Made by a program: the position numbers and the translations under genes. From a virus (lineage: Duplodnaviria > Caudoviricetes): a DNA stretch of 26,724 nt. Within the stretch, counting starts at the first letter, position 1; each line of letters opens with the position of its first letter. This document shows, one piece after another, positions 1,783-19,884 of the stretch. The DNA lies in the IMG/VR virus record IMGVR_UViG_3300044878_000170, positions 1 to 26,724 of that record; one strand, 5' to 3'. Below the pieces are notes generated by a model. That model searched no databases and was not told the origin of the DNA. It saw only the letters and a program-made list of their open reading frames with translations.

Positions 1783-1818
1783 ACGTTACAGGTCTTACCT
1801 AGTGTTGTCTAGTGTTCC
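1783..1818 (-). promoter_or_regulatory. SigA-like promoter TAGACA-N17-TAACGT overlapped by two 10-bp repeat units
   Basis: -35 at 1806-1811, -10 at 1783-1788; units GGAACACTAG (1809-1818) and ACAACACTAG (1799-1808). Confidence 0.6.
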
Positions 1819-2038
1819 CGTGTGTCTCAATTTCCAGCGTGTCGCCGTTCACCAGTTCGCCTACAAGTGTCAGGGGCGGCGGCTTGGCTGTGAACCGTAG
1901 GCTCCGGCTGATCGGGTCATCGGTTCGGGTGAGGTCGAGGTCAGCGGCGTCATACAGCTCCTTCGGCGTAATCGTGACATCACCACCGAGCCGGGCGAGA
2001 AGCGCGGCAATTATGTCTTCCTGCGGGCTCCTGCTCAT
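1799..2038 (-). CDS. Hypothetical protein, 79 aa (MSRSPQEDII...)
   Basis: ATG at 2038 overlaps the upstream stop (ATGA). The ORF-track start at 2368 overlaps another gene and is too long. Confidence 0.7.
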   Translation of the reverse strand: MSRSPQEDIIAALLARLGGDVTITPKELYDAADLDLTRTDDPISRSLRFTAKPPPLTLVGELVNGDTLEIETHGNTRQH

Positions 2039-2823
2039 GCTGCCATCCGTTCGCGCCGTTCGGCGAGGGCTTGTTTTGAGCGGTCCCAGAGGTTGCGGAC
2101 CTTGCGGACCTGGTACACGGGCTTGTCGCCCCGGTATCCGATGGGGGTGAGTTTGCCCCGGTTCACCCATTGCCGGATGGTCCCCTGCGGGAGTGCTTCG
2201 CGGGTGACGGGGTCCGAGAGCATCCGGGACACTTCGGAGGCTGTGCCGGTGTGGTATCCGGCGGCGGTCAGGGCGCGTTCCCGCCAGTCCGTGACGTCCC
2301 AGGTCGCCCCGCACGTCTGGCACCGGGCCACCGGGCGGCCTTCGAGGGCGTAGACGGGGGTGCCGCATTCCTGCCCGCCCTCTTCGGTGGGGCAGATGCC
2401 GGCGAAGATGCGGGGCGCGGCCCGGTCGGTTGCCCGGTCGCAGTCCGTCAACGCCTCCCGGAGTTCCTGCTTCAGCACCGGCGCCCAGTCCCGGCCCCGT
2501 ACCTCGCGGATCTGTTCGAGCAGTACGGCCGCGGCCTTGACCGCGTGGGGTTGCCGGTTGCCGAGGGCGTGGGTCCAGCCGGTGAGGATGACGTTGAGGG
2601 TGCGGCCGGTGTCGTAGGCCCTAGCGTTGGTCGGTTCCGACGGGGCGGAATGCCCGGAGGTCCCGACGCTGCCGTTGCCGACGTTCATCCGGGCCGCGGA
2701 CGCCCAGACGGCCTCGACGGTGGCCTTGACCCTGCCAAGGTCGGCAATGAGGACATCCCGGCATCCCGGGCACAGGTAGATACCGTCCGGCTGGTTATCG
2801 CACGCCCCGCAGCTTGATCCCAT
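2035..2823 (-). CDS. Zn-binding protein with C-terminal HTH, probable late-gene regulator
   Basis: CxxC pairs (CGAC, CPGC, CQTC); C-terminal TASEVSRML...QGTIRQWVNRGKL HTH; last large early gene before the late promoter. Confidence 0.7.
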   Translation of the reverse strand: MGSSCGACDNQPDGIYLCPGCRDVLIADLGRVKATVEAVWASAARMNVGNGSVGTSGHSAPSEPTNARAYDTGRTLNVILTGWTHALGNRQPHAVKAAAVLLEQIREVRGRDWAPVLKQELREALTDCDRATDRAAPRIFAGICPTEEGGQECGTPVYALEGRPVARCQTCGATWDVTDWRERALTAAGYHTGTASEVSRMLSDPVTREALPQGTIRQWVNRGKLTPIGYRGDKPVYQVRKVRNLWDRSKQALAERRERMAA

Positions 2824-2828
2824 GCCCC

Positions 2829-2868
2829 TATCTTAACAGGGAAGTTCCTTACTGTTCCTCACTGTTGG
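2829..2868 (-). promoter_or_regulatory. Promoter/operator: three tandem 10-bp units and -10 TAAGAT
   Basis: Minus strand reads CCAACAGTGA GGAACAGTAA GGAACTTCCC TGT TAAGAT, just upstream of the ATG at 2823. Confidence 0.65.
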
Positions 2869-2876
2869 GCGTGTCG

Positions 2877-3245
2877 CTACAGTGCCCATTCCTCGTCATA
2901 GTCCGGGTGCGAGCTGTAGACCGCGGCGAGGGCCCGGAGCACCGGCGTGGTGGGCGGCTCGACACCGAAGCGCTTGACATACTCGCGCTCGGTCAGCCAC
3001 GCGATCTCCCTCGTCATGCGGTACGTCATGCTTTGGGTATCGTTCGCGTCAAAGTCGCCGGATGGGGCTCGCTCGACAAGCACCGGCCATTCCTCATGCT
3101 GCTTGATGATCGCCCGTTTCGCGGCGCACTCAGCAAGGACGCGGGCAGGAGAGAATAGCGGGTCGGGGCTGCTCGCTAGGTAGGGATAGCGGGCCCTCGC
3201 CTCATCCTCGGCGATGCAGGCTTCCAAAAACTCAACAATCGTCAT
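2877..3245 (-). CDS. DUF6221-like protein
   Basis: MTIVEFLEACIAEDE...RVLAECAAKRAII...LRALAAVYSSHPDY pattern typical of this actinobacterial family. Confidence 0.75.
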   Translation of the reverse strand: MTIVEFLEACIAEDEARARYPYLASSPDPLFSPARVLAECAAKRAIIKQHEEWPVLVERAPSGDFDANDTQSMTYRMTREIAWLTEREYVKRFGVEPPTTPVLRALAAVYSSHPDYDEEWAL

Positions 3246-3400
3246 GCGCTCATCCTTCCAGCTTCACACGCGCACGTGTCGTCTTTGCGGCCGGTCAGCA
3301 TCTGCTTGACCTTCCCGTAATCGAACGAGCCCGACGCCCAGTCGTTCTCCATCACGTACAGGGTTTGCTTGATCCGGCGCTCCGCCTCACACTCAGGCAC
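3242..3400 (-). CDS. Small hypothetical protein, 52 aa (not in ORF track)
   Basis: Translated by hand: MPECEAERRIKQTLYVMENDWASGSFDYGKVKQMLTGRKDDTCACEAGRMSA. GGAG upstream, fills the gap, ATGA overlap with the next gene. Confidence 0.65.
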   Translation of the reverse strand: MPECEAERRIKQTLYVMENDWASGSFDYGKVKQMLTGRKDDTCACEAGRMSA

Positions 3401-3587
3401 GGGGACTCCGCTCTTGGTAGTAGTCCCGCCACTGCGTTAGGCCCATGAGCGCCTTGTCATCTTCGGTGTAGAACGTGATGGCCGCGTTTTCGATAATCTG
3501 CCCGAGGCGCAGGTTAGGGTTCGCCAGCCACAGCTCACCGAGGATGGCGAGGATCTCGGGGATGCGCTTTGGCTCTCGACTGCTCAT
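3393..3587 (-). CDS. Small protein, DUF1040/YihD-like
   Basis: REPKRIPEILAILGELWLANPNLRLGQII motif; coupled to its neighbours. Confidence 0.6.
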   Translation of the reverse strand: MSSREPKRIPEILAILGELWLANPNLRLGQIIENAAITFYTEDDKALMGLTQWRDYYQERSPRA

Positions 3588-3709
3588 CCGTGGTCTTCTC
3601 TTTCGTAGGTGTCGGCGCGTTCCTGGTCGGGGCCGATCCGGTCGGCTTCCTGCGCCCGGGCCTGAGCTTCGCGGAGGGCTTCGTAGTCGGTGCGGACGCT
3701 GCGGCTCAT
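3584..3709 (-). CDS. Small hypothetical protein, 41 aa (not in ORF track)
   Basis: MSRSVRTDYEALREAQARAQEADRIGPDQERADTYEREDHG; ATGA overlaps at both ends; GGGGAGG SD. Confidence 0.65.
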   Translation of the reverse strand: MSRSVRTDYEALREAQARAQEADRIGPDQERADTYEREDHG

Positions 3710-3906
3710 GCTGCCTCCCCGGCGGTGAGTGCGGCGCGTGCCTGCTTCACAGCCTCCCGGGCCTGCCGTGCATGCGCCCAGTCCCCGCCCCCCGCGGCAG
3801 CCGACACGGCGGCAGTGTACGCGTCATCAGCGGCGGCCAGATCCGCGGCGAGCTGGTCCCCGTCCCCGCCGGCCATGCTGATCAGGTGCTCGGTGTAGTC
3901 GCTCAT
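3706..3906 (-). CDS. Hypothetical protein, 66 aa
   Basis: 4-bp overlaps with both neighbours in the operon. Confidence 0.7.
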   Translation of the reverse strand: MSDYTEHLISMAGGDGDQLAADLAAADDAYTAAVSAAAGGGDWAHARQAREAVKQARAALTAGEAA

Positions 3907-4247
3907 GCGGAGGCCTCCGTAATAGTGGCGATGCGGTACTCCCAGTCAATGCCGGCGGTCTTGCAGTCCTCGCTCCACTCGCTGACGAATCCTGTAGCGG
4001 CGATTATGTCGAGGCCGAAGTCCCTGATGAATCCGCCGTCCCGATCCACGACGACGTAGCCGATTATCCGGGGCTTCGTGTAGCCGGCGGTGAGGATCGC
4101 GTCGGCCATAACCTCGTAGTGCTCTACGCGACCTTGGAAATTGTTCGAGTCTTGGAAGTACTCCCAGTCCGCTATCGACGCCTCCCGCGGCTGGTTGCCG
4201 TTGTCGCCGATGAACAGTTCGAGGGCCAGTTCGTCACGGGCGCTCAC
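3903..4247 (-). CDS. Hypothetical protein, 114 aa
   Basis: Normal protein composition; GTGA/ATGA overlaps. Confidence 0.75.
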   Translation of the reverse strand: MSARDELALELFIGDNGNQPREASIADWEYFQDSNNFQGRVEHYEVMADAILTAGYTKPRIIGYVVVDRDGGFIRDFGLDIIAATGFVSEWSEDCKTAGIDWEYRIATITEASA

Positions 4248-4435
4248 GCGGCGTTCCTTGCGGGGGTGTGGTCGCGGATTTCGGCCTGGATGGATTCGTA
4301 CCGGGCGCGGGCCTGGGCGGCTTCGGTGGAGGCTTGGGCGAGGTCCGCGTCGGCGCGTTCCATGGCTACTTTGGCGATGCGGAGCTGGCGGTACAGGACC
4401 GCGGCCTCCAGTTCGGGGGTGGGTACAATGGGCAT
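4244..4435 (-). CDS. Hypothetical coiled-coil protein, 63 aa (MPIVPTPE...)
   Basis: Start placed at ATG 4435 after the GGAAGGA SD; the upstream 70 nt are a hairpin leader. Confidence 0.6.
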   Translation of the reverse strand: MPIVPTPELEAAVLYRQLRIAKVAMERADADLAQASTEAAQARARYESIQAEIRDHTPARNAA

Positions 4436-4505
4436 TGCGGGGTTCCTTCCCGTCATTGCCCCGGACTGTCTTGAACCAGTCGCGGGGCTTCGTCTTTGTT
4501 CCATC

Positions 4506-4533
4506 AGTCTACAGCAAAGTTCCCTAGTGTTCC
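4506..4533 (-). promoter_or_regulatory. Promoter/operator GGAACACTAG GGAACTTTGC TG TAGACT
   Basis: Near-identical to the element at 9283-9310; -10 TAGACT at 4506-4511. Confidence 0.7.
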
Positions 4534-4967
4534 ATAAAGTCGGGGACTTTCTCCGGCGCGTCTAACTCCCGGACGGTCAGGATCAGGGACGCCGCACCCT
4601 TCGGCCCTGGGAACAAAAACGGGCCCTCCACGAACTCGTTCGCATCATCCACGCACATCCCGTGATCGATGAACCCGTCCACAATCGCCTTAGCCGTCGG
4701 GTAAAAGTTCATCGCGTCGTACGTGCCGGCGCGCTCCTTCACGACCAGCCCGGTGATCTCCACCCGCCTAAGCCCCGTCGGCAGGCCAGCTGCCGCGGCC
4801 GCCGTGGCGGCGTTCTCCCGCCATCCCTTCCGGATCGGCGACAATACCCGCCAGTGGTCCCGGTCGTTGGAATTCAGGAACGGTTTCCGCTGGAACACCT
4901 TCCCCGTCTTGCGCTTCACGACCGGCTTCACCACCGGGGCCGGAACCGTCACCACCCACTCCCTCAC
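4524..4967 (-). CDS. rusA: RusA-like Holliday junction resolvase
   Basis: DAMNFYPTAKAIVDGF...VDD matches the RusA D-x-x-N..K...D....DD acidic pattern; directly downstream of DnaB. Confidence 0.7.
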   Translation of the reverse strand: MREWVVTVPAPVVKPVVKRKTGKVFQRKPFLNSNDRDHWRVLSPIRKGWRENAATAAAAAGLPTGLRRVEITGLVVKERAGTYDAMNFYPTAKAIVDGFIDHGMCVDDANEFVEGPFLFPGPKGAASLILTVRELDAPEKVPDFMEH

Positions 4968-6229
4968 GAGTAGAACCCGGCCGGCTTGCCGCGGTCCCGG
5001 AGCATCGAGTTATGCCCCAGGAAGTCCATCTGCGCGGTGCCCGTGATGCCGTGGCGGTTCTTCGCCACGATGAGGTCAGCCTCGTGCGGGGCTTCGAGCA
5101 GGTCGCGGTGCATCAGGATCACGACGTCCGCGTCCTGCTCAATCGCGCCGGAGGACCGGAGGTCGGAGAGCTGGGGGACTTTCCCGTCCCGCTGCGTGGA
5201 TCCTCGGTTGAGCTGAGACAGCACAATCACCGGCACGCCGAGGGCTTTCGCCAGGAGTTTGAGTTTCCGGGAGTGCTCCGTGACGACCTCGTACTCGGAC
5301 TTGCGTTTGTCCGGGTGCTCCATCAGGCCGAGGTAGTCCACGACGACGGCGGACAGCCCATGCTTGCGCTTCACACTCCAGGCGTGCCGGGCGACCTGCG
5401 CCATTGTCGAATCCGAGGACGGGTCAATGAACAGCGGCAGCGTGCCCCAGCGCTCCCGGGCGGCGGCCACCCGCTCCCAGTCGGCGTTCGTGAGTTTGCG
5501 GGCCGTGATCCGGCCCATGTCGACCTTCGCCTCCTGCGACACCATGCGGAGTTCGAGTTCGTCGTGGCTCATTTCCAGCGAGGTGAATGCCACGGGGCCG
5601 CGGTTGCATAGGGACAGTGCGGCCTGGAACCCGGCGACGGTCTTACCCACGGACGGGCGGGCCGCGATGATGTACAGCGCCCCGGGCCGCCAGCCCTGAA
5701 TGAAGTGGTTCACGTTCTCCCACGGCGATTCCGTGTACGTGACAGGTGAATCCAGCGAGTCCAGGGTCGCGTCGATGGTTTCCGCGACGGGCCGGATGCT
5801 CGAACCCAGCCCGGACGTGACGCCGGAGAGCTCCCCGAGGGCTTCGTCCGTGAGGGCTTCAACGTCCCCGCCGCTGGCCGCCCGCTGCTGCAACGTGGAC
5901 GCAATGCCCACGAGCCGCCTGCGGGCCGCCTCCCGCGCCACAATCGCCGCGTGGTGAGGTACTGCCGCTTCCGGCACGAACACGCCCACAAGGTCCCACA
6001 GCAGGCTAATGGGGACCAGCCGGCGCCCGGCCTCATCCAGCCGCAACGCCGCATCACCCACCGTGACCGGGTCCGCGGGCTTCCCCGACTCCACCACATC
6101 CCGGATCAGACCGAACAGCGTCTCGCCCTGCAACGTCGAGAAGTCCCGCGGTTCGAGGCTGATCTCATGCAGGCACCCGCCCGCCGATTCCAGTAGCGCG
6201 GACAGGACCGCCGACTCCGCCGCGATCAC
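4964..6229 (-). CDS. dnaB: DnaB-like replicative helicase
   Basis: Walker A AARPSVGKT, SLEMS, VVVDYLGL, SQLNR, DLRSSGAIEQDAD. Start placed at GTG 6229 (GTGA overlap). Confidence 0.95.
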   Translation of the reverse strand: MIAAESAVLSALLESAGGCLHEISLEPRDFSTLQGETLFGLIRDVVESGKPADPVTVGDAALRLDEAGRRLVPISLLWDLVGVFVPEAAVPHHAAIVAREAARRRLVGIASTLQQRAASGGDVEALTDEALGELSGVTSGLGSSIRPVAETIDATLDSLDSPVTYTESPWENVNHFIQGWRPGALYIIAARPSVGKTVAGFQAALSLCNRGPVAFTSLEMSHDELELRMVSQEAKVDMGRITARKLTNADWERVAAARERWGTLPLFIDPSSDSTMAQVARHAWSVKRKHGLSAVVVDYLGLMEHPDKRKSEYEVVTEHSRKLKLLAKALGVPVIVLSQLNRGSTQRDGKVPQLSDLRSSGAIEQDADVVILMHRDLLEAPHEADLIVAKNRHGITGTAQMDFLGHNSMLRDRGKPAGFYS

Positions 6230-6633
6230 TTGATGGCCTTGGGGGTGCCGAGGGCTTCGAGGATGCCGATCGTGGATGCCTGGTAGCACTCATACGCGGC
6301 GCGGTCCATCCTGCCGTTCCGGATCTCCCCGTACAGGGCCTTGTTTGCGGCGCTGTAATCGCTGCAGGTCTGCTCGTCATGGTCACTGAGCCGGGGCTGG
6401 GCGCCGAACCCGTCCATCCGGGCCCGCTGCGTCAACAGGACCCGCTCCACGATGTGCGCCGGCATGATCCACGCCGTAGACGTGCGGAAGTAATCCGTGA
6501 CCGCCGCAAGGCAGTCCGCGAGCGTGTACGGCTCCACCACCTCGGACCATGCCGAGAGGACAGCCTCGTCCACATTCCGGTTGTCAAAAGCCTGGATCTT
6601 CGCGAGCAGTGCGCTCGTCTCTTCAATACGCAT
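6226..6633 (-). CDS. Probable helicase loader
   Basis: Lies between initiator and DnaB; LLAKIQAFDNRNVD...W...L.DCLAAV..YF pattern seen in phage loader/inhibitor (G39P-like) proteins. Confidence 0.6.
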   Translation of the reverse strand: MRIEETSALLAKIQAFDNRNVDEAVLSAWSEVVEPYTLADCLAAVTDYFRTSTAWIMPAHIVERVLLTQRARMDGFGAQPRLSDHDEQTCSDYSAANKALYGEIRNGRMDRAAYECYQASTIGILEALGTPKAIK

Positions 6634-6638
6634 GGGGG

Positions 6639-7394
6639 TTATCCAATCGCTAGCTGGTCTTGGGTGCCGTCCTGGACTGCTTGGAGCCGGCGGCCGATTT
6701 CAAGGGTGGACTGCATTTTGTTCATGGTGGTGGGCTTGCCCTGCGGTGCGCGGTCGGCGGCGTTCATCATCCAGTTACGCCACGTCGCAACCCAGTCGAG
6801 CTTCACGCCCTTGGCGCCGGCGAGTGCCTGGTAGTAGTTGATGAACTTCGCCGTCTCCCGCTGGCCGTCAACGCTCGGACAGTTCGACCGGGCCCACGCC
6901 ACCATCGCCGGGGCAACGGTGAAGTCGGCGGGGATTCGTGAGCCGCGGCTACGCGGCATAGAAGTACCGTTAGGTACTTCATCTTTATCTTCATCTTTAT
7001 CTGCTACAGGTTTGCTAGCCGTTTGCTTAGCATGTGAGCTAGCACTTGCTAGACCGTTTGCTTTCGCCCTGCCACCCATCGAACCGGCCGCCGCCCGCTT
7101 GTTCCTGCGGATTTCGACCTGTTCGGCAGACTCCTGATGCTCCAAATAGTCGTGCATTTCGTAGCCGTTTTCCGACTCGCCCACGAAGCCTACTGTCAGC
7201 AGTTCTTTTCGGGATTTTGCCGAAAAAAGCTTCAAAAACTGTGCTTTCGTGAGCTTCCCGTCATTGAGGTTCCTTGAGCAGTAGCACCAGGCCTCGATGA
7301 GCTGCCGGAACGCCTTGTCGGAGAGCTCGATCGCCTTGGGGTGTTCGGGGAATCCGTTGTGGAGCTTGAAGAAGAGGCGCGGGTCCGAGGCCAT
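6639..7394 (-). CDS. Phage replication initiator (RepA/lambda O-like), 251 aa
   Basis: Start MASDPRLFFKL at 7394; N-terminal DNA-binding domain, low-complexity linker holding repeats, C-terminal F.NYY...K.DW.ATWRNW domain; upstream of loader and DnaB. Confidence 0.8.
   Translation of the reverse strand: MASDPRLFFKLHNGFPEHPKAIELSDKAFRQLIEAWCYCSRNLNDGKLTKAQFLKLFSAKSRKELLTVGFVGESENGYEMHDYLEHQESAEQVEIRRNKRAAAGSMGGRAKANGLASASSHAKQTASKPVADKDEDKDEVPNGTSMPRSRGSRIPADFTVAPAMVAWARSNCPSVDGQRETAKFINYYQALAGAKGVKLDWVATWRNWMMNAADRAPQGKPTTMNKMQSTLEIGRRLQAVQDGTQDQLAIG
6961..7063. repeat. Putative replication origin inside the initiator gene
   Basis: 8-bp inverted repeat GAAGTACC-GTTA-GGTACTTC (6961-6980), AT-rich tandem CTTCATCTTTAT x2 (6977-7000), then iterated (GT)TTGCT(AG) copies near 7010, 7021, 7046 and 7056. 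Confidence 0.65.
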
Positions 7395-7804
7395 CAGGCG
7401 GCCGCCTTTGCTGTGCGGTAGCCGCGGTGCCGTTCGGTGTGCGCGGCCCGGCAGGGCACACACGTCGGGGTCCCGGCGCGGAGGTGCCGCTGGTAGCCCT
7501 GGGGGGTGCCGCAGCGCCCGGGGCTGAACCGGCCGTCGGGACGTGTTACGGGCTCCTTGGGGTTCGCTGCCCGCCACGCCCGGTGATAGGCGGAGTTCGC
7601 TGCCCGGCACGCGTCACAAATGTCCGTGCCGTAGCGGCGGTGCTGCTTGTAACCGGCATGGGTGCCGCACTTGGACGGGTCGAACACGCGGGGCCGGGCA
7701 ACCGGGGCGCGGACGGGGCGGGGCTTGACGGGGGTCGGGGTGAGCTTGACGGGCGCCGGGGCCGTGTCGCGCAGATCGGGCTTGCCGTTCCATGTGTACG
7801 CCAC
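7394..7804 (-). CDS. Protein with two tandem CGT-x2-GY-x2-H-x7-C-x2-C Zn-binding repeats
   Basis: CGTHAGYKQHRRYGTDICDACRAA and CGTPQGYQRHLRAGTPTCVPCRAA. Confidence 0.75.
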   Translation of the reverse strand: MAYTWNGKPDLRDTAPAPVKLTPTPVKPRPVRAPVARPRVFDPSKCGTHAGYKQHRRYGTDICDACRAANSAYHRAWRAANPKEPVTRPDGRFSPGRCGTPQGYQRHLRAGTPTCVPCRAAHTERHRGYRTAKAAA

Positions 7805-7806
7805 GG

Positions 7807-8979
7807 TTACCGCCCTGCCTTGATACCAATGAGGGCCGCGAGGATCGCTTCCGCCAGCAGCGGGGGGACCGCGTTACCGATCTGGAGGAACTGCTTCGTC
7901 TTCGTCCCGCACCACACGAACGGGCGCTCGAAGGTCTGGAGGGCGGCGGCTTCGTCGATCGTGGCTTGGCGTCCTTCCGGGTCGCGGTCCTTCGCCCCAA
8001 TCGCACGGGTCGGGCGGGTGCCCCATTCGGCGTTTCCAGCGCCAGTAATCGTCGGTGCAGGGGATGTTATCGGGCGCGGGTCGACGACCTGGCAAGTTGT
8101 GCCGGACGCCGCCAGGTGCGTCGGGTAGGACTGCAGGGCGGCGGCCTCTTCGGTAGTGAGGCGCTCCGTGGATCCAGTCCAGCCGGGAGAGCCGGTGTAG
8201 CGCTCGTGGTACTTGGCGATCGGTTCCGCGCCGCCCGCGTCCGTGCCGCCGCCCGTGATAGTCGGGGACGGGCGGGTCGTCATGCCCCGCCAGCCGAGCG
8301 CCTCGGCCATGCTGACCCACTTCTTCACTCCCGGGTCGAGCTTGTCCGGGGTGCGGGAGTAGTAGCGGGAGTGCGTCGGGGTGGGCAGGTTGACGGGGCC
8401 GCCGCGACGGGCGACAAGGATGGCACGCTTGCGGGTCTGCGGGACGCCGTACTGCTCCGCGTTCAGGACCTCGACCTTGACCTGGTAGCCCCAGTCGCGC
8501 ATGACCTCGGCGCACGCTTCCCACACGGGCAGGACGGTCGGGACCTGCTCGAAAGCGACAAGCCGGGGACGGTCGCGCCAGACGTAGGCAAGCGGGGACA
8601 GGACGAGCGCGGTCCTCATGTCGTGCTGTTCACCGAAGGCCAGGAGGGCGTCAGCGTCCTTGTAGGCGTGCAGCTCGATGGCTTCGAGGACCTCGTCCAG
8701 CGCTGCGCGGCCTGCGCCCTTCCCGGCGAGGCTGAACGTCTGGCACGGCGGGGACGCGATCAGCAGGCCGTAGGGCCCGTAGGATTCCCGGTGCTGTTCG
8801 GCGGTGAGCTGCAAACCGTCCCACACGTCGTTATAGATGGTGTCCATCCCGTTCGCCGTCCGTGTCGCTACAGCCTCGGGCATGATCTCCACCCCGGCCT
8901 CTTTGATGCCGAGGCGCTGGCAGGCCACTCCCCAACCACTGCCCGCGAACAAATCGAGGGCCTTGATCCGGGCGCTCAT
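7807..8979 (-). CDS. C5 cytosine DNA methyltransferase
   Basis: Motif I DLFAGSG, IV SPPCQ, VI EQV, VIII GVPQTRKR, X QIGNAVPP. Confidence 0.92.
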   Translation of the reverse strand: MSARIKALDLFAGSGWGVACQRLGIKEAGVEIMPEAVATRTANGMDTIYNDVWDGLQLTAEQHRESYGPYGLLIASPPCQTFSLAGKGAGRAALDEVLEAIELHAYKDADALLAFGEQHDMRTALVLSPLAYVWRDRPRLVAFEQVPTVLPVWEACAEVMRDWGYQVKVEVLNAEQYGVPQTRKRAILVARRGGPVNLPTPTHSRYYSRTPDKLDPGVKKWVSMAEALGWRGMTTRPSPTITGGGTDAGGAEPIAKYHERYTGSPGWTGSTERLTTEEAAALQSYPTHLAASGTTCQVVDPRPITSPAPTITGAGNAEWGTRPTRAIGAKDRDPEGRQATIDEAAALQTFERPFVWCGTKTKQFLQIGNAVPPLLAEAILAALIGIKAGR

Positions 8980-9200: not shown

Positions 9201-9282
9201 TTAGAACCATTCCCCTTAGTAATGGTTGGGCCCGTCAGGTGGTTGGACACCGGCGGGTCTTTCTTTGTTTTCGTACAAGTAC

Positions 9283-9310
9283 AGTCTACCGCAGAGTTAC
9301 GTAGTGTTCC
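9283..9310 (-). promoter_or_regulatory. Promoter/operator GGAACACTAC GTAACTCTGC GG TAGACT
   Basis: Same architecture as 4506-4533; follows the ssb terminator. Confidence 0.7.
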
Positions 9311-9386
9311 GCCGTTTCTACCTAATGACACGCCGGTAATTTACTTAGTTCCCGTGTCGAGTTACCTACTCATCCCCGGGCACGCG

Positions 9387-9420: not shown

Positions 9421-9435
9421 CAGGTGCTGCGGGGG

Positions 9436-9855
9436 CTAGAACGGAGCCTCTGCGCCTCCGCCGTTGCCCCAGGTGTCGGCCTGCGCCGGCTGGTTGCCCC
9501 AGTTGCCCTGCGCCTGCCCGCCGCCGTTCTGCTGGGCGCGGGGGATGATGCCAACCTCGCGGGCCGTCAGCTCCAGCGACTTGCCCTGCGTCCCGTCCTT
9601 CGCCTCATACTCCCGCAGGCGCTCCTGCCCCGTGACGAGGACGCGGTCGCCCTTCTTCAGCACCTCGGCCAACGCTTCTGCCTTCTTCTCCCAGACCGTG
9701 ACCCGCCGCCACGTCGTGCCGTCCTCGTCCCAGCCGCCCTGCGCGTTCTTCTTGCTGTGGTTCTCCGCGAGGGAGAACTCAAGTACGGCCTTGCCGGCGG
9801 GCGTGAATTTCATCTGGGGTTCGCCAATGTTCCCGGATACGGTGATGTCGCTCAT
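9436..9855 (-). CDS. ssb: Single-stranded DNA-binding protein
   Basis: ITVSGNIGEPQMKFTPAGKAV, W.RVTVW...AE, L.KGDRV.V.G, Gly/Gln-rich tail ending APF. Confidence 0.95.
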   Translation of the reverse strand: MSDITVSGNIGEPQMKFTPAGKAVLEFSLAENHSKKNAQGGWDEDGTTWRRVTVWEKKAEALAEVLKKGDRVLVTGQERLREYEAKDGTQGKSLELTAREVGIIPRAQQNGGGQAQGNWGNQPAQADTWGNGGGAEAPF

Positions 9856-9857
9856 GG

Positions 9858-12940: not shown

Positions 12941-13149
12941 AGCCCTGCCGCCTCGTCGTATACGGATTCCGCGGCCTTGCACGCGAGGCACGTGCACCGG
13001 CACGGGCGGGGGACGCGGCGGGTGATCCGGCGGCTCAGGGCGGCCTGCGCCCGGTTCTCCGCGGCGGCATCGGCACGGTCCGCGGCGAGTGCCCAGGCCA
13101 GCCAGACCCCGGCGCCGATCGTGGCGAGCATCAGGAGGAAGGTGTTCAT
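12937..13149 (-). CDS. Small membrane protein with C-terminal Cys cluster
   Basis: N-terminal hydrophobic helix; CRCTCLAC. Confidence 0.7.
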   Translation of the reverse strand: MNTFLLMLATIGAGVWLAWALAADRADAAAENRAQAALSRRITRRVPRPCRCTCLACKAAESVYDEAAGL

Positions 13150-13526
13150 GAGAGCTCCCAGCGGGTCTTGATGGTGCCGAGGGTGAGGGAGGTTTCCCAG
13201 TACAGGGTGAGCAGGAGCGCGTCCCTGACATGGTCCGTGTTGTCGACGGTGGCGGCCGCGTTGACCTGTAGGTCCGGGTGGGTGCCGTTCTCGATGGTGC
13301 CGAGCTCACGGGCGTAGGTGACCAGCTGGTCGATGTCGCACCAGTTGAGATCCCGGTCGGTGAGCCAGGCGAGACGCCGGGTGAGGGTCTGCAGTTCAGT
13401 CTCGGAAGGGCCGGTGAAGCATGCTATGTCTGCCGCGAAGTGCTTGATCTCGGCGAAGACGATGTGGTTGGCGAGGTTCTTGTCGAACAGGTAGGGGGTC
13501 CGGGTAGACTCTAGAAATGTCGTCAC
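13146..13526 (-). CDS. Hypothetical protein, 126 aa
   Basis: First gene after the promoter at 13603-13629. Confidence 0.75.
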   Translation of the reverse strand: MTTFLESTRTPYLFDKNLANHIVFAEIKHFAADIACFTGPSETELQTLTRRLAWLTDRDLNWCDIDQLVTYARELGTIENGTHPDLQVNAAATVDNTDHVRDALLLTLYWETSLTLGTIKTRWELS

Positions 13527-13602
13527 TGTGGTTCCAATCGCTAGTGATGGTGTCGAGGTCCGGGAGTTCGCGCTTCCGGGCCTCTCTTGTTGCTATGGGA
13601 AC

Positions 13603-13692
13603 AGCTTACATGATGTTCCGTACTGTTCCATACATTTACGGGAAAAAAGGCAAAAAAATATAGGCGAGTCGCCGAACAGTGCGGAAGTTCCT
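13603..13692. promoter_or_regulatory. Promoter/operator cluster
   Basis: Minus strand GGAACAGTAC GGAACATCAT G TAAGCT (13603-13629); A-tract 13643-13659; plus strand CGAACAGTGC GGAAGTTCCT (13673-13692). Confidence 0.65.
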
Positions 13693-13982
13693 CACAGTTG
13701 CTCCCACACGCCGACCGGCCGGCGCTCCACCACATACACGCCCGGGTGCGCCTCAACCCACGCCAGCGCCTGGCCCTCCGTGTTGAAGCCGATCTCCGCC
13801 GTCACGTCCCCGTCCATCACCGCGAACTCCCACCCCGCCGCCTTCACCCAGCCGAGCCGGAGCATCGCCCCGACCGCCGCCGCCGCCTGCAGGTCCAGCA
13901 GATGGTCCGGGGACCCCGCCGCAGACTCGGAATCGTTGATAGCCTGACGGACCGCCGCGTGCAGCTCATCCTCCGGGGTCAC
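13692..13982 (-). CDS. Hypothetical protein, 96 aa
   Basis: Coupled to the upstream ORF by GTGA. Confidence 0.7.
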   Translation of the reverse strand: MTPEDELHAAVRQAINDSESAAGSPDHLLDLQAAAAVGAMLRLGWVKAAGWEFAVMDGDVTAEIGFNTEGQALAWVEAHPGVYVVERRPVGVWEQL

Positions 13983-14230
13983 TTGGATTCCCCATGCTCG
14001 GCGCAGGCGGGATCAAGCCACGGATTTTCCTTGACCGGCCGACATTCTGGCTCGACCGTCCCACACCTCGAACACTCGGCAGTCGTCCACCCCGTGAACC
14101 CGTAATAGGCGAAGGGGTCTGGGTCGTCCCCGGACTTGAGTGAACTCTCCGGCACAAAACGCCCGCATGGGCAGAACCAGCGAACGTCACACCAGCTAGT
14201 GCAGGTGCAGTCGGTATCTGCGGCGCTCAT
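13979..14230 (-). CDS. Cys-rich hypothetical protein, 83 aa
   Basis: CTC, CPCG, CSRC; coupled ORF. Confidence 0.7.
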   Translation of the reverse strand: MSAADTDCTCTSWCDVRWFCPCGRFVPESSLKSGDDPDPFAYYGFTGWTTAECSRCGTVEPECRPVKENPWLDPACAEHGESK

Positions 14231-14418
14231 CGTGAGGCCCTCGGCTGTTTCTTCCGGTAGTCCTCAACATCGGCCCACGGGATCCGGATGTGGTTGGACT
14301 GGTTGCCCTTGCCGGTCTTGTACGCGTTGGGGAACTCGTTGGACCGGGTCAGGATCCGGACCGTTTCGGGGTGCAGGCCGAGATGCTCGGCGACCTCGGA
14401 CACTTTCGCGTCACTCAT
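14227..14418 (-). CDS. Excisionase/MerR-like (HTH_17-type) DNA-binding protein
   Basis: KVSEVAEHLGLHPETVRIL...FP.AYK.G....IRIP..DVE winged HTH pattern. Confidence 0.8.
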   Translation of the reverse strand: MSDAKVSEVAEHLGLHPETVRILTRSNEFPNAYKTGKGNQSNHIRIPWADVEDYRKKQPRASR

Positions 14419-14594
14419 GCTGTTACCTCCTGGGGGATGGATCGGGCGAACTCGGCAGCGTCACGGATGGCGTCCTCGAAGCTCGTCCACGTCGCCGTGG
14501 TGGATGGGGTCTTGACGTACCAAAATCTGTGAGACGGGACCTGGACGAGGCAGCAGTCGTCCTTGCACTGGAAGACCCGGACCGGCCGCTTCAT
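14415..14594 (-). CDS. Hypothetical protein, 59 aa (MKRPVRVFQC...)
   Basis: Start ATG 14594 by ATGA overlap. Confidence 0.65.
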   Translation of the reverse strand: MKRPVRVFQCKDDCCLVQVPSHRFWYVKTPSTTATWTSFEDAIRDAAEFARSIPQEVTA

Positions 14595-14881
14595 GCCCGG
14601 CCCCGTTTTGCGATCTCGCGTTCGATGTACCATTTCGCCTTCTCCAAGTCTTCGATGGCGTCGTGCTTCAAGTCGCACCGCCAGATGTATTTCAGGGCGT
14701 TGCCCAGGTTGAACCCCATGTGCTCCGTGATCTGGATGCACTCGATGCCGCTGGGGTGCCCGGTGTAGTGCGCTGGGCGGTTCACCGGGTCGGGGACGGT
14801 CGGGCGAGCGTGGCAGCCTTGAAGGTGAACTGGTGCCCAGCAAGTTATAAGCCCGGTGCATTCGGAGGTGCCCGGTTTCAT
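14591..14881 (-). CDS. DUF3310-family protein
   Basis: DPVNRPAHY..HPSGIECI.....GFNLGNALKYIWR...K....EDLEKAKWY signature; start ATG 14881. Confidence 0.85.
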   Translation of the reverse strand: MKPGTSECTGLITCWAPVHLQGCHARPTVPDPVNRPAHYTGHPSGIECIQITEHMGFNLGNALKYIWRCDLKHDAIEDLEKAKWYIEREIAKRGRA

Positions 14882-15138
14882 GCCGCACTCCAGACACGGC
14901 AGGCCCCGCCGGAGCGGCCCGGGCGGCGACTGCGGTGGTAGCCGACGGCCCGGATCAGGCCCGCGTCGTGCGCCTCCCGGAAGAGCTTCCCCCACATGGC
15001 CGGCGATGGAGGCTCGCGGAGTTCGGCGCGTTCGGTGAGTGAGTACGCGTCAAAGGGCTTGCCCTCGGCGGCGACCTTCATGAGCGCGTCCATTGCGTCG
15101 GCGCTCCAGTCGAGGTCGTCCAGCACTGCGGCCCTCAT
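14878..15138 (-). CDS. Hypothetical protein, 86 aa, possible winged helix
   Basis: Start MRAAVLDD at 15138 (ATGA overlap); PP.P.MWG.LF..A...GLI..VGY. Confidence 0.65.
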   Translation of the reverse strand: MRAAVLDDLDWSADAMDALMKVAAEGKPFDAYSLTERAELREPPSPAMWGKLFREAHDAGLIRAVGYHRSRRPGRSGGACRVWSAA

Positions 15139-15422
15139 GCCGTCACCGCCGGTTCGCACTGGCAGGAATCGTCCGGGTATTCGCACTCGGGGCAGTAGGT
15201 GATGTGCTCCGACCACTCGCCTTGATCATGGGAGCATTCCTCGCAGTAGGTGCCGATCTGCGTCCGTTCGCATATGCGGAGGGTGTCCTCGTTAGCCGTG
15301 CAGCCCTGCGGGTGGTCTTCCGCCCATGATTCGTAGGCTTCTGTTGTCTCGTCGTCCGGGACCTTGCACGAGCAGGCTTCGGCGTTCTCGTAGACGGGGT
15401 AGTCGACATTGTGTGTCGTCAT
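15135..15422 (-). CDS. Acidic Cys-rich hypothetical protein, 95 aa
   Basis: CSC, CEEC, CPEC, CQC; coupled ORF. Confidence 0.7.
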   Translation of the reverse strand: MTTHNVDYPVYENAEACSCKVPDDETTEAYESWAEDHPQGCTANEDTLRICERTQIGTYCEECSHDQGEWSEHITYCPECEYPDDSCQCEPAVTA

Positions 15423-15622
15423 GATGCTTTCCTCCTGCTGTATTCGGTGATGTCGTCTTCGGTGCGCTGGTTGCGGGCCTGGGTGATGATGTGGGCGAGT
15501 TCGTCCGGGGTCAGGGGTGTGTAGCGGAGTTTCTGCCCGGCGGTCGGTGAGCCCATGATGCCGCGGGGGATGGGCTGGGTGGACATGTTCCGGCGGGTAG
15601 CGCGCCGCTGCGGCTCACTCAC
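15419..15622 (-). CDS. Hypothetical protein, 67 aa
   Basis: 4-bp overlaps on both sides. Confidence 0.65.
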   Translation of the reverse strand: MSEPQRRATRRNMSTQPIPRGIMGSPTAGQKLRYTPLTPDELAHIITQARNQRTEDDITEYSRRKAS

Positions 15623-16023
15623 CGGAGATCCGATACTGCGCGGTTGATGAGTGCGTTCGCTTCCGTCAGCCGGTTCACGACGCTTGAACGGCTTGCCGTT
15701 TGTCCCTTTGGTGGGCGGCCACCTTTGCGCCCGTTGGCGGCGTTGGCCTCTTGCCGCGCAATGACGGATTCTTTCCGGCGCTGGTGCTCGGCATGGTGGA
15801 GGATTACATACACGCTCCCCATGTCTTCCCAGAATCCACCCTCGAGCAGTTCGCGCACTGCTCCCGGCGTTTTAGCGAACCGGCGGACGTCGTCCTTTGG
15901 GATGACAAGGTCAAGCAGTCGGCGGTTGCTCCAGATCAGGCCATCCGTGTGGAGTCGGTAGGCGGCGTCACTGAGCTCCCACGTTTCATCGGCATAGCCG
16001 TCTGAGAGTTTCGTCCAGCTCAT
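15619..16023 (-). CDS. Protein resembling the N-terminal domain of the replication initiator
   Basis: Aligns by eye with 6639-7394: KLSDG..ELSDAAYRL vs KLHNG..ELSDKAFRQ; ELLEGGFW..HAEHQ vs ELLTVGFV..YLEHQ; NGRKGGR vs AGSMGGR. Confidence 0.7.
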   Translation of the reverse strand: MSWTKLSDGYADETWELSDAAYRLHTDGLIWSNRRLLDLVIPKDDVRRFAKTPGAVRELLEGGFWEDMGSVYVILHHAEHQRRKESVIARQEANAANGRKGGRPPKGQTASRSSVVNRLTEANALINRAVSDLR

Positions 16024-16289
16024 GATCCGACCTTCACGGCGGGCTTGCGGATGGACTCGGGCTTGACCCCGAGGTAGCGGGCGGCCTTGATGAGTTTGCC
16101 GTCGGTGAGGGCGCGGTAGCCGGATTCGATGTGGGCGATGCTGTGGGGGTGTTTGAAGCCGACGGCGGTGGCGAGTTCGGCCTGGGTCATTTCCTTGTTG
16201 AGCCGGAGTTGCCGGATGAGGCGGCCGGTCTTGGCGGGGTCATCGTCTGAGTGTCGGCGGGTGGATCGCCGTTTCTGTGGAGTGTTCAT
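16020..16289 (-). CDS. cro: Cro-like XRE HTH regulator, 89 aa
   Basis: IRQLRLNKEMTQAELATAVG....SIAHIESG XRE HTH; divergent from the repressor; first gene of the early operon; start ATG 16289. Confidence 0.8.
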   Translation of the reverse strand: MNTPQKRRSTRRHSDDDPAKTGRLIRQLRLNKEMTQAELATAVGFKHPHSIAHIESGYRALTDGKLIKAARYLGVKPESIRKPAVKVGS

Positions 16290-16325
16290 GAAAGGAACTC
16301 TACGGAACAATGCGGAAGATGGCAA
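16290..16325 (-). promoter_or_regulatory. Early lytic promoter TTGCCA-N17-TAGAGT, leaderless into cro
   Basis: -35 at 16320-16325, -10 at 16297-16302, ATG 7 nt downstream, no SD. Overlapped by three repeat units on the + strand (16294-16323). Confidence 0.75.
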
Positions 16326-16338
16326 CCAACACGCCGGA

Positions 16339-16367
16339 ACACTACGAAAATGGCATATGAATGACAG
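16339..16367 (-). promoter_or_regulatory. Possible second leftward promoter CTGTCA-N17-TAGTGT
   Basis: -35 at 16362-16367; -10 at 16339-16344 overlapped by the unit GGAACACTAC (16336-16345). Confidence 0.45.
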
Positions 16368-16378
16368 GTATGTAACTT

Positions 16379-16394
16379 TCGAACACATATTCGA
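16379..16394. promoter_or_regulatory. LexA (SOS) box
   Basis: TCGAACACATATTCGA, one mismatch to the actinobacterial consensus TCGAAC-N4-GTTCGA, in the cro/repressor intergenic region. Confidence 0.7.
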
Positions 16395-16473
16395 ACGAGT
16401 AGTCAGTTCCCCAAAAGCGCGTACTGTTCCCATGAATTAGCCACTTGTAAGCCGAACTTCCGTAAGACACGAT

Positions 16474-16908
16474 GTGGAGGTGAAAGACGCAGAAGCACTC
16501 GAAATCATCGGCGCCCTCATCAAAGAAGGCCGCCTCCACAAAGACCTCCGGCAGCTCCCGTTCGCCAAGTTCGCCGAGGTCGACCCGAAGACGCTCGCGT
16601 CCATGGAAAAAGGCACCCGCGTGGCGTGGGAAACCAACCAGCGCAAGGTAGAGAAGGCTCTCGGTTGGCGTGCAGGTTCCATACAGGAAGTGCTCGATAA
16701 CGCGGCGGACACCCCGAGGGAATCCGTGACGCTGGCCTCGATGCAGGAGGGTGCCGGCGAGGCGTCCTGGCAGGACCTGGACCGGGAGATTAACGGGGCG
16801 CCGGAACAGCCCGTAACACGGGCAAGCCAGTTGACGGACGAGGAACTGCTCGCGGAGCTTTCATATCGATTCCGTAACTATAAAAACAGGTTTCTTGGTG
16901 AATCGTAG
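16474..16908 (+). CDS. Immunity repressor (XRE-type HTH, no peptidase domain)
   Basis: IKEGRLHKDLRQLPFAKFAEVDPKTLASMEKG HTH; divergent from cro and upstream of the integrase. Exact start uncertain. Confidence 0.75.
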   Translation: MEVKDAEALEIIGALIKEGRLHKDLRQLPFAKFAEVDPKTLASMEKGTRVAWETNQRKVEKALGWRAGSIQEVLDNAADTPRESVTLASMQEGAGEASWQDLDREINGAPEQPVTRASQLTDEELLAELSYRFRNYKNRFLGES

Positions 16909-16956
16909 AGGATCCTGCGGGCTTCACAGGTACAGCACATACCTCTGACAAATTAT

Positions 16957-16981
16957 GGAACAGTGCGGAACCGTGTAACCT
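16957..16981 (+). promoter_or_regulatory. Promoter/operator GGAACAGTGC GGAACCGTG TAACCT
   Basis: Two tandem units plus a TANNNT hexamer upstream of 17032. Confidence 0.6.
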
Positions 16982-17031
16982 GTGTCTCGTCACCACGGCG
17001 GCGACGATTTCAGAGCAAGGGCACCATACCG

Positions 17032-17340
17032 ATGTTGAAAGAAAAGCCCCTGGGGGGACTGCACGAGATCACCCGTTCAGCACAGATGCACGAACGCGGC
17101 CACGCCTACTACGGGACGGCCTGCGACGACGGCCCGGCGTGCGACCGGGCCGGGCGGTGGGCGGCGCGGCGCCTCATCACCCCGCGGGCACTGCTCACCG
17201 CCGCGAAAGACGAGTGCTGCACCCTGACCATCGCGGCGGCCCTGTGCGTCACCCGCACCGACGTCCTGCACTACCTCGCCAGCCTCGACGTGGACGAATG
17301 GCTCATCATGCAGCGCCTCATCGGGCACGAGCTGCGCTAA
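17032..17340 (+). CDS. Short ImmA/IrrE-like HExxH metallopeptidase homologue, 102 aa
   Basis: HERGHAYYG followed by RA.RWAARRLI and IAAALCVT; directly after the repressor; start ATG 17032 with AAGGG upstream. Confidence 0.6.
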   Translation: MLKEKPLGGLHEITRSAQMHERGHAYYGTACDDGPACDRAGRWAARRLITPRALLTAAKDECCTLTIAAALCVTRTDVLHYLASLDVDEWLIMQRLIGHELR

Positions 17341-17351
17341 TGCGGGTCGAG

Positions 17352-17945
17352 CTAGAGTGCGGGATTTGTAGCGGCGACGCGTCGCCGGCCGGAAGCCAGC
17401 CTTGTCACGTAGCTCTGGTGGATGCTGAACTGGGTCGCTATGTCCCGGCTAAGGACCCCGGCCATCGCGAGCCTTCGTATCTCGGCGACGTCGGTATCTG
17501 TCAGCTTATGCCTCGGCATCCGCTCACCGTTGGCGAATCGCTTCCTCGCAATGCTGTCATGCACGTTCTCTGCGATCGTCCCCGTCGTCAGGTGGGCCGG
17601 GTTTATGCAGGGCGGGTTGTCGCATGTATGCCTGACGACCTTCCCTGCCGGGATCGGGCCGTTGGCCGCCGTATAGGCGAGGCGATGTGCCAGCCACGCT
17701 ACTCCGCACATCGACAGGTTTCCGTAGCCGTCCCTGCTGCGGCTACCCCGCCACTCATGGCAGCCGCTCGCGGTTACGGTCCATCCGATGAACGCAAGCC
17801 GCTCGGATGGGCTCAAGCCCTTGGGTGCCATTCTTCTCACATTATCGAGTCGGCCGGTGCGATTAAGCTTCGTGTAGTGCTTGTTGCACATGCCGCGAGC
17901 GTGCGCCGTCCGCTCGCATTCAGGCTGGGAGCAGGTAGAGTTCAT
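17352..17945 (-). CDS. HNH homing endonuclease-like protein with C-terminal HTH
   Basis: CSQPEC..ARGMCNKHY; AHRLAY...GPIP....VRHTCDNPPCINPAHL; KLTDTDVAEIR HTH; GGAGG SD. Confidence 0.9.
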   Translation of the reverse strand: MNSTCSQPECERTAHARGMCNKHYTKLNRTGRLDNVRRMAPKGLSPSERLAFIGWTVTASGCHEWRGSRSRDGYGNLSMCGVAWLAHRLAYTAANGPIPAGKVVRHTCDNPPCINPAHLTTGTIAENVHDSIARKRFANGERMPRHKLTDTDVAEIRRLAMAGVLSRDIATQFSIHQSYVTRLASGRRRVAATNPAL

Positions 17946-17946
17946 G

Positions 17947-18037
17947 GTGTCGAACCTCCGATAAGGGTTTGGCCACGCTCCCGGATGGTTACAGCCATCG
18001 CGGGAGCTTCTTGTTCCCCTATTTTACCGCAAGTTCC
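17947..18037 (-). promoter_or_regulatory. HNH promoter (-10 TAAAAT at 18021-18026) and two-hairpin leader
   Basis: GGAACTTGCGG TAAAAT; stem at 17977-18007; second imperfect stem at 17947-17976 pairing the GGAGG SD. Confidence 0.6.
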
Positions 18038-18057
18038 GCACAAGACAGGGGAACTCT

Positions 18058-19185
18058 ATGCCTAGAGTTGAGGACAATTGGGTAAAGAAGGATAAGACGC
18101 GCACCGCACTCTACGGGAAGGGCCTGCGCTGGCGTGCCGTGTGGACGGAGGCCGGCAAGGAACGGAAGCGCTCCTTCGCCGTCAAGGACGCCGCGAAGGC
18201 ACACCTGACATGGGTGGAGCACAACCAGCGCTCCGGGACCTACATCAGTGCCGACCGGGGCCGGGTGTTCGTCCGGGACCTCATCGACGCATGGGTCGAC
18301 ACGCAGGTCCACCTGAAGCCGTCCACGATGGCGGCCACCCGCTCGGACGTCCGCGCCACGATCAAACCGTACTGGGGGGATAAGATCCTCGCCGACATCA
18401 CCCGCGCCGACGTCCAGGCATGGGTGTCCGGGATGACCAAGGCGGCCCGCACCGTCGATACGATCTATGGCCGGTTCCGGAAGTTCCTGAACTGGTGCGT
18501 GGACGAGGGCAGGATCGTCACCTCACCCGCCAAGGGGGTGAACCTGCCCAAGGGCCACAAGCGGGAACACATCTTCCTCACCGTGCCCCAGGTCGGCCGG
18601 CTCGCCCGGGAGATCTCCCCGCAGTTCGCGGACCTCATCTGGTTCCTTGCCACGACCGGGCTGCGGTTCGGGGAGGCCGCCGAGCTCCGGACCAAAGACA
18701 TCGACGTCAAGCGGTGCCGGGTCAGGGTGGCCCGATCCGTGACGGAGGTGGACGGGGCGATGGTGATCGGGCCGCCGAAGAACGGGAAAGAGCGCACCGT
18801 GCCGCTGACGGCGTTCATGGCCGAACGGCTCGCGGCCCGCCTCGAAGGCAAGGGCCGGGACGTGCTGGTGTTCCCGTCCGAGCGCGGCCACCACCTCCGG
18901 TCGAACAACTTCAAGACCCGCGAATACGACACGGCGGTCGAGGCGGCCGGCCTCCCGGAGGGCCTGTGGGTCCATGACCTCCGGCACACGGCCGCATCCC
19001 TCGCAGTCCACTCCGGCGCCTCCGTGAAGTCAGTCCAGCGCATGCTCGGCCACGCCTCCGCCGCCCTCACCCTAGACATTTACAGCGGCCTGTTCGACCA
19101 GGAGTTGGACGACGTCGCCGGGCGGATGGACGCCCTATTGGGAGACGCCAAAATGTCAGACCCTCGACTTACGCTGGGTCAATGA
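18058..19185 (+). CDS. int: Tyrosine integrase
   Basis: TGLRFGE (R), PPKNG (K), HDLRH, LGH, TLDIY (Y). Confidence 0.95.
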   Translation: MPRVEDNWVKKDKTRTALYGKGLRWRAVWTEAGKERKRSFAVKDAAKAHLTWVEHNQRSGTYISADRGRVFVRDLIDAWVDTQVHLKPSTMAATRSDVRATIKPYWGDKILADITRADVQAWVSGMTKAARTVDTIYGRFRKFLNWCVDEGRIVTSPAKGVNLPKGHKREHIFLTVPQVGRLAREISPQFADLIWFLATTGLRFGEAAELRTKDIDVKRCRVRVARSVTEVDGAMVIGPPKNGKERTVPLTAFMAERLAARLEGKGRDVLVFPSERGHHLRSNNFKTREYDTAVEAAGLPEGLWVHDLRHTAASLAVHSGASVKSVQRMLGHASAALTLDIYSGLFDQELDDVAGRMDALLGDAKMSDPRLTLGQ

Positions 19186-19873: not shown

Positions 19874-19884
19874 CAGAATTACCT

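Follow-up and report, generated by a model that had tools for sequence, protein, structure and literature searches.

Pairs of 10-bp direct repeats as probable operators of the XRE-family immunity repressor in an uncultured temperate phage

The DNA analysed here, referred to as the window, is the whole of the 26,724-nt viral record IMGVR_UViG_3300044878_000170 (Duplodnaviria; Caudoviricetes), which represents part of a temperate phage genome. It carries 10-bp direct repeats that stand in head-to-tail pairs at predicted promoters, and these pairs are probably the operators of the XRE-family immunity repressor encoded at 16474–16908 (+ strand). The leftward early genes comprise cro, an xis-like gene, ssb, a methylase gene and a DnaB gene; the window further holds the rightward repressor gene, an ImmA-like gene, an inserted HNH gene, a tyrosine integrase gene (int), a second HNH gene, an attachment (att) core, and lysis and tail genes. 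It likely belongs to an uncultured temperate phage of an Arthrobacter-type host, because homologues of the repressor occur in Arthrobacter, Pseudarthrobacter and Paenarthrobacter genomes. No close kin was found among cultured phages, where the megablast match was a single methylase gene and searches with the repressor, Cro and the product of gene 13146 gave distant matches or none.

For comparison, 38 loci (L numbers) were fetched by repressor similarity, and 23 were used, namely the window and 22 relatives with a full repressor at least 44% identical and a syntenic switch region. Left out were the duplicates L032, L034 and L035, the truncated L011, L026 (which has no syntenic switch) and distant matches.

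Five predicted promoters of the window share one arrangement, in which a pair lies in the sense orientation, has its first unit starting 19–23 bp before a TAnnnT −10 box and extends over the −35 position and spacer. An earlier, sequence-only reading of the window described the distance to the −10 box as variable, but it varies little. On the minus strand, the pair GGAACACTAG ACAACACTAG (within 1783–1818) covers the predicted promoter of the terminal genes (−35 TAGACA, 1811–1806; −10 TAACGT, 1788–1783), which by its position is possibly a late promoter; this pair is conserved in G003, L044 and L045, and L050 has AAAGCTAG repeats. The pair GGAACAGTAA GGAACTTCCC with −10 TAAGAT (2830–2858, −) forms a predicted leaderless promoter 6 nt before the ATG at 2823 of a 262-aa protein (2035–2823, −), a candidate late regulator with a weak MerR-like C-terminal match. 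Further minus-strand pairs are GGAACACTAG GGAACTTTGC (4493–4533; −10 TAGACT at 4511–4506, extra unit at 4502–4493), GGAACACTAC GTAACTCTGC (9310–9291, within 9283–9352; −10 TAGACT, extra unit at 9352–9343) at a predicted promoter downstream of ssb, and GGAACAGTAC GGAACATCAT (13629–13610, within 13603–13639; −10 TAAGCT, weak third unit upstream). On the plus strand, GGAACAGTGC GGAACCGTGT with −10 TAACCT (16957–16981) forms a predicted promoter that would serve the ImmA-like gene and, in relatives, int as well. Antisense −10 matches on the pairs at 4520, 13616 and 16970 were set aside as produced by the unit's own TA; the match at 16970 is conserved in near twins only.

At the switch between cro and the repressor gene, the units are antisense to both predicted promoters and form two convergent arms 55 bp apart. 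The left arm (16294–16345, +) has three units at 16294–16323, lying over the predicted cro promoter (−35 TTGCCA, 16325–16320; 17-bp spacer; −10 TAGAGT, 16302–16297), and one at 16336–16345. The right arm (16401–16473, −) has units at 16410–16401, 16430–16421 and 16461–16452, the last inside the predicted repressor promoter (+; −35 TTGTAA, 16445–16450; −10 CACGAT, 16468–16473). In L007 and L010 the right-arm pair is not convergent.

Composites of a pair plus a −10 box number five in the window and 4, 5, 5, 4 and 2 in five relatives that are 81–100% complete, against 0.03–0.17 expected. All those of the relatives lie in the early and lysogeny region, except one in G002 that stands at the head of an XRE moron (G002:C1 18018–18393, L058); this moron lies in the head-gene region behind an operator pair and encodes a weakly matching XRE protein. 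Throughout the 23 loci, pairs stand at homologous promoters and differ in sequence by phage. The composite was not found in the phages TripleJ (23.5 kb) and BV-113 (9.4 kb examined), nor in the distant loci L019, L020, L023, L026 and L027. In L027, a Propioniciclava contig whose repressor is 30% identical, a GGAAC pair (GGAACAATAG GGAACCTAGC, ∼9800–9850) lies over the left promoter, which suggests that the design reaches past the Micrococcaceae.

All 13 sets of coordinates in the sequence-only reading contain the sequences attributed to them and the repeats are real, but its consensus, GGAACA[C/G]TA[C/G], has to be loosened to GGAACnnTRC, as most of the 23 units carry one to four mismatches. 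Exact copies of GGAACASTAS number six in the window, against an expectation of 0.08; with one mismatch there are 11, against 3.7. A non-circular test used a matrix built from 40 units of eight relatives, with the window and its three near twins left out. By this matrix, pairs in the window at spacing 10 with both units scoring at least 4 bits comprise seven that touch intergenic DNA and two inside genes, 20-mers touching intergenic DNA being 8% of all 20-mers, and no such pairs were found at spacings 9 and 11. Intergenic units of at least 9 bits number 18, compared with 1.5 in shuffled intergenic DNA. Single units are common in genes, where 20 of the 40 matches of at least 9 bits lie further than 12 bp from any intergenic DNA. 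The enrichment is a property of pairs, not of single units; the expectation that the motif would be rarer in coding sequence holds for the former and fails for half of the strong examples of the latter. The placement of all arrays at gene boundaries is borne out in that pairs are mostly intergenic, but the units at 1799 and 4524 overlap stop codons. The preference for pairs one helical turn apart over palindromes stands: in 24 pooled loci, G[GTC]AA[ACT] has a spacing peak at 10 bp (124 pairs, versus 18–55 at other spacings from 6 to 30), and the composite recurs at many promoters.

Certain arrays need to be redrawn. At 2839–2868, described as three units, the first two form a pair but the third (2859–2868) is poor (−3.2 bits). 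The second unit of the array at 1799–1818 (1799–1808) is also poor (−0.1 bits), but the repeat at 1799 is conserved in relatives. The plus-strand array at 13673–13692 is weak, and the overlapping minus-strand reading, an auxiliary weak pair GCAACTGTGA GGAACTTCCG at 13682–13701, scores about equally and is the conserved one. Units at 4493–4502, 9343–9352, 16452–16461 and 19898–19907 had been missed, and so had two features described below, a LexA-type box and a unit that adjoins the attachment core. Another repeat, GGAAGACTGC AGAACTTCCG (1622–1641, −), lies in a hairpin-like intergenic stretch, and one of its units scores well. An in-gene pair at 16803–16822 was rejected as an operator: it is kept in L001–L006 only, is absent in L013 and was treated as inherited codons.

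The position of the pairs invites the reading that they are positive promoter elements, bound by a phage activator (the 262-aa regulator, acting like lambda CII) or by a host sigma factor or regulator that replaces −35 recognition. Indeed, at 25 sense-pair promoters of six genomes the −35 hexamer matches TTGACA at 0–4 of 6 positions, with the first unit covering it, and the distance to the −10 box is narrow. However, the pairs change orientation between homologous promoters (L002, L014, L007/L010), as expected of operators and not of a −35 substitute, a choice of the sequence-only reading that is supported here; a host factor would not yield phage-specific variants; homologues of the 262-aa protein are ∼35% identical in G001 and 59–67% in G004 and G005, yet all three genomes have GGAA(T/A); and the units at att have no −10 box at the usual place. 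We consider activation very improbable. Steric repression is favoured because a protein present in the lysogen cannot activate lytic promoters and because of the flips in orientation.

Which protein reads the pairs was addressed through covariation. The motif is GGAAC in the group of the window, GGAA(A/T)C in L007 and L010, GGAAT in L015, L016, L018 and L031, GGAAA in L014 and L033, and G(C/T)AAC in L008, L009 and L030. Agreement at base 5 is 0.73 within a phage and 0.42 within a promoter type (permutation p 0.001; 98 units, 19 loci); therefore, the sites of a phage change together, and a single phage protein over many promoters, as had been proposed, fits repeats that behave as its operators. 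Base 5 of the anchored units follows residue 55 of the repressor in 23 of 23 loci: C with Asn (15 loci), T or A with Ser (six) and A with Ala (two). On the tree residue 55 changed three times independently, and Ser arose twice. The rule also holds for 16 of 18 units at held-out sites in five long relatives; the other two carry G, and none has the base of another class. In Mantel tests on 13 non-redundant loci with repressor, Cro and Xis genes, motif distance correlated with the distance between repressor helix-turn-helix (HTH) domains at 0.76–0.85. With all available loci, this value was lower, 0.52–0.74, with up to 0.43–0.69 for Xis. Taken together, these comparisons point to the pairs as operators of the repressor, forming a family-wide network, and we assign this a probability of roughly 0.72.

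The Cro-position XRE (HTH_3) protein (16020–16289, −) might instead be the main binder, tuning early transcription and acting in excision as Apl and Cox do. Apl of phage 186 is the product of the first lytic gene and binds 10–11-bp repeats at att and at the switch (PMC7498355); 14 of 15 loci have a matching unit directly against the att core; and Cro position 48, at the start of the recognition helix, sorts the base-5 classes without exception (21 of 21 loci). On the other hand, the Mantel correlation of the motif with Cro was 0.17–0.22 in the 13 loci and not significant. The correlation of the repressor survives control for Cro, and that of Cro does not survive control for the repressor, its partial value being negative. 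Phages whose Cro proteins are 40–65% identical have the same motif (L001 and the window share 65% in Cro and 100% in the repressor HTH), and motifs differ at 75–76% (76% in L005 and L010). In L030 no Cro was found within the 18 kb examined, yet this locus has arrays of its own and a unit at att; an unrelated 115-aa gene (7113–7460) occupies the cro position there and the operators persist. Finally, a separate Xis gene is present. We regard Cro as an unlikely main binder, although it may share the sites.

The sequence-only reading did not decide between repressor, Cro and Xis but leaned towards an Xis/BldC-like protein, here the winged-helix HTH_17 protein at 14227–14418 (−), which would polymerise head-to-tail at att and promoters in the manner of D29 Gp36 and BldC. 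One-turn direct repeats are the standard site of recombination directionality factors (RDFs) and BldC in the sources consulted, units do occur at att, and Xis distance correlated with the motif at 0.53–0.75 (13 loci). That correlation is lost with the repressor held fixed: the partial Mantel value for the repressor given Xis was 0.62–0.68 (p 0.0005) and for Xis given the repressor −0.16 to 0.27 (p at least 0.06). No column of an alignment of 18 Xis sequences separates the motif classes, for either base. L007 and L012, 81% identical in Xis, have the helix PETVRELARA in common and different motifs, and L008 and L009, whose Xis proteins are 72% identical, agree in their repressor HTH and both show the GCAAC variant. 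Moreover, the arrays have 2–3 units rather than 5–7, and the cultured phage BV-113, with a 40% identical Xis homologue, the same att core and a different repressor, has no composite in the part examined. Covariation points to the XRE repressor instead, and Xis as the binder appears highly unlikely. The ImmA-like protein was rejected as well: the partial correlation of the repressor given this protein was 0.44–0.48, the reverse was ∼0, and the gene is absent from L015, L016 and L018.

At the attachment site (19828–19997), a tRNA-3′-like core ending at 19874 is abutted by the unit GTAATTCTGT (19882–19873, −), with further units nearby. The core-abutting unit matches the promoter class of its phage in the 14 loci mentioned above, across two integrase types. 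This is the strongest argument for a binder of the Apl/Cox/Xis type, yet the att variant keeps to the repressor class in a case where Xis departs from it (L007 versus L012). Tallies of pentamers across the entire att arm are noisy, with mixed bases in both classes, and a clean signal comes from the core-abutting unit alone. The one locus that breaks the match is the window itself, whose att-proximal block (19860–20000) shares 100% identity with L007 across 100 bp, its units being of the T/A type; this block was likely swapped in recently beside the HNH gene at 19182–19799.

A number of observations weigh against assigning the pairs to the repressor. In addition to the Xis correlation and the match of Cro position 48, the att block of the window, being of L007/L010 type, mismatches its own repressor, while the Xis helix of the window resembles that of L010; and units next to att are what an Apl/Cox/Xis-type binder would predict (PMC7498355). 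Residue 55 lies past the recognition helix and its changes comprise three independent events only, and the corresponding rule for base 2 is weaker, Asn37 occurring with G2 in L014 and L033. Linked genes share their history, and Mantel tests on related loci are liberal. The covariation analysis drew on units chosen by G.AA score, with a one-base re-registration by hand at four loci; near-duplicates had been removed, and promoters lacking an acceptable pair were passed over. L030 may be defective, and every promoter is a sequence prediction.

The conserved start of the repressor is likely the GTG at 16480, the residue numbering used here counting from 16474. The structure model has an N-terminal XRE HTH domain, a linker (predicted local distance difference test score, pLDDT, 56–64) and a C-terminal helix with almost no variation among 69 homologues. 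Among the domain matches listed, XRE covers residues 2–87 only, and no peptidase domain was matched. Fold searches returned generic XRE domains, with no Foldseek match at E of 0.001 or lower and no cluster A repressor among the matches listed; 8BNY matched weakly (E 0.087), over the HTH region only. The gene is followed by that of an ImmA/peptidase M78-like protein (17032–17340, +), M78 being indicated on 29% of the members of its cluster in the Atlas features. Its homologues keep both His and two Cys (H-x3-H, C-x3-C), and the HExxH Glu is kept in four of 17, the window included, so that the catalytic Glu typical of an ImmR/ImmA module is not conserved in this gene. The protein may be a non-proteolytic, zinc-binding antirepressor.

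We propose that the repressor, bound to pairs over the −35 region and spacer of about nine predicted promoters, would block RNA polymerase and thereby hold the lytic programme silent. Through a flexible linker, two HTH domains would be joined to an oligomerising C-terminal helix and would read two units one turn apart, so that a palindrome would be unnecessary and either orientation would do. At the switch, an oligomer could bridge the convergent arms and so form a loop spanning the promoters of cro and the repressor gene.

The centre of the switch (16373–16394, +) contains a −10-like TAACTT abutting a LexA-type box, TCGAACACATATTCGA (16379–16394). Such a box lies in the same place between the two arms in 13 of the 23 loci, with variable central bases, and is abutted by a conserved TG-TAnnnT. 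Compared with tCGAAC-N4-GNNCGa, the type of the Streptomyces consensus (PMC9380542), it has one mismatch in the window and is perfect (TCGAACACGTGTTCGA) in L007 and L013. The same format occurs upstream of lexA in G006, a Pseudarthrobacter genome (one of seven loci with the pattern). By its sequence the box is an actinobacterial LexA-type site, making LexA a putative ligand. Since the repressor has no self-cleaving domain, we propose that induction in this 13-locus clade would proceed via host LexA at the switch centre, perhaps also with the ImmA-like protein. In GIL01 and in the CTX phage with RstR, a host LexA box reportedly lies in the prophage control region and the repressor does not cleave itself; those are other hosts and other repressor families, and a promoter network built of direct-repeat pairs was not described for them in the literature examined. 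Switch length varies by at most 1 bp in the 13 box-bearing loci, which is compatible with phased looping and no demonstration of it. The box is missing in ten of the 23 loci, and therefore the operator network is independent of it. The switch centres of L014–L018, L029, L031 and L033, which have no LexA box, share TT(T/C)CCGCAGGTCA-like and GTAATTAC-like words, possibly the site of another host regulator.

These elements can be combined into a fuller scheme, in which a single non-cleavable repressor would silence all early promoters via the pairs and lock att by binding beside the core, residue 55 would set base 5 and hence the immunity type, and host LexA would gate a concealed promoter at the centre that, by firing upon DNA damage, would break up the repressor loop. 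As a whole this scheme is speculative, and we think it somewhat improbable.

The components of the proposed network have known counterparts. Rco of the Bacillus plasmid pLS20 is an XRE repressor with convergent direct-repeat operators at a divergent promoter pair (PMC4207663, PMC9986798) and, like the repressor described here, has an N-terminal XRE HTH and a C-terminal extension. The Rco system is further characterised by a p53-like tetramerisation domain at the C terminus and by DNA looping that depends on helical phasing. However, it governs plasmid conjugation from a single locus, with an 8-bp motif and a 75-bp bent spacer, whereas the phage has strict 10-bp pairs at about nine promoters and a 55-bp gap with a LexA-type box; oligomer and loop are proposed here by inference. 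C repressors of the P2 family are likewise immunity repressors that read non-palindromic direct repeats differing in sequence between heteroimmune kin (PMC2995052), but P2 C has one operator, at Pe, with half-sites 2–3 turns apart, and does not need a C-terminal extension; units one turn apart at many promoters set the present system apart from it. The stoperators of cluster A mycobacteriophages, to which the sequence-only reading had compared the repeats, are asymmetric sites of an actinophage immunity repressor spread across the genome (PMC9283540). The comparison fails on site structure and orientation: stoperators are single 13-mers, more than 20 per genome, oriented with transcription and bound by a monomer with two DNA-binding domains (an HTH and a Stoperator domain) that blocks elongation, whereas here 10-mer pairs lie on promoters in either orientation, with 2–5 composites per long genome. 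Gp33 of mycobacteriophage BPs binds five regions at several promoters, with two half-sites per operator (PMC4557955), but these are 12-bp palindromes with a variable spacer, and attP lies inside the repressor gene. Apl of 186, Cox of P2, Gp36 of D29 and BldC use one-turn direct repeats at promoters, Apl also at att (PMC7498355, PMC12266134). In that class the binder is an RDF; one-turn repeats and att sites were found here too, but the sequence comparison points to the repressor rather than to the Xis-like protein as what sets the motif. Dispersed operators and direct-repeat repressors are thus each known, and their combination was not found in the literature searched. Nor were operators of this type in Arthrobacter phages, or a repressor site against an att core, described in that literature (the survey PMC5513430 included), which covered few subscription papers and no supplements.

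Within 18021–18059, a single unit at 18037–18028 (−) with −10 TAAAAT faces the inserted HNH gene (17945–17352), and a further unit (18050–18059, +) on the start of int is present in this genome only. Both genes were found in 15 relatives, and in 13 of these no more than 20 bp separate the ImmA-like gene from int behind it; the window has an HNH insertion with a unit and −10 box of its own. The separate operator-controlled integrase promoter suggested by the sequence-only reading is not supported, the unit at 18050 belonging to a window-specific insertion. In the inserted HNH genes of the window (17352–18057) and L005 (∼3297), a repressor-type unit stands directly before the −10 box (GGAACTTGCG G TAAAAT and GGAACTTAGG G TAAAAT, respectively), as if mobile HNH genes had been placed under immunity control. 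A hexapeptide-repeat acyltransferase gene (21957–22568) lies on the opposite strand between the tail and lysis genes. The genes at 15619–16023 and 6639–7394 match the same replication-initiator PHROGs; the former is a short gene after cro that was not found there in the relatives.

In the portion of the literature that was accessible to our search, no operator system has been described for Arthrobacter temperate phages. The 23 repressor–operator pairs form a natural series with a one-residue, one-base rule, which makes heteroimmunity directly testable, and they would provide a clean case for how an XRE domain reads direct repeats. Two leads emerge from the series, the LexA-gated centre and the att-abutting site; they may offer a way for the SOS response to induce an actinophage whose repressor is unable to cleave itself and, possibly, a direct link between immunity and excision.

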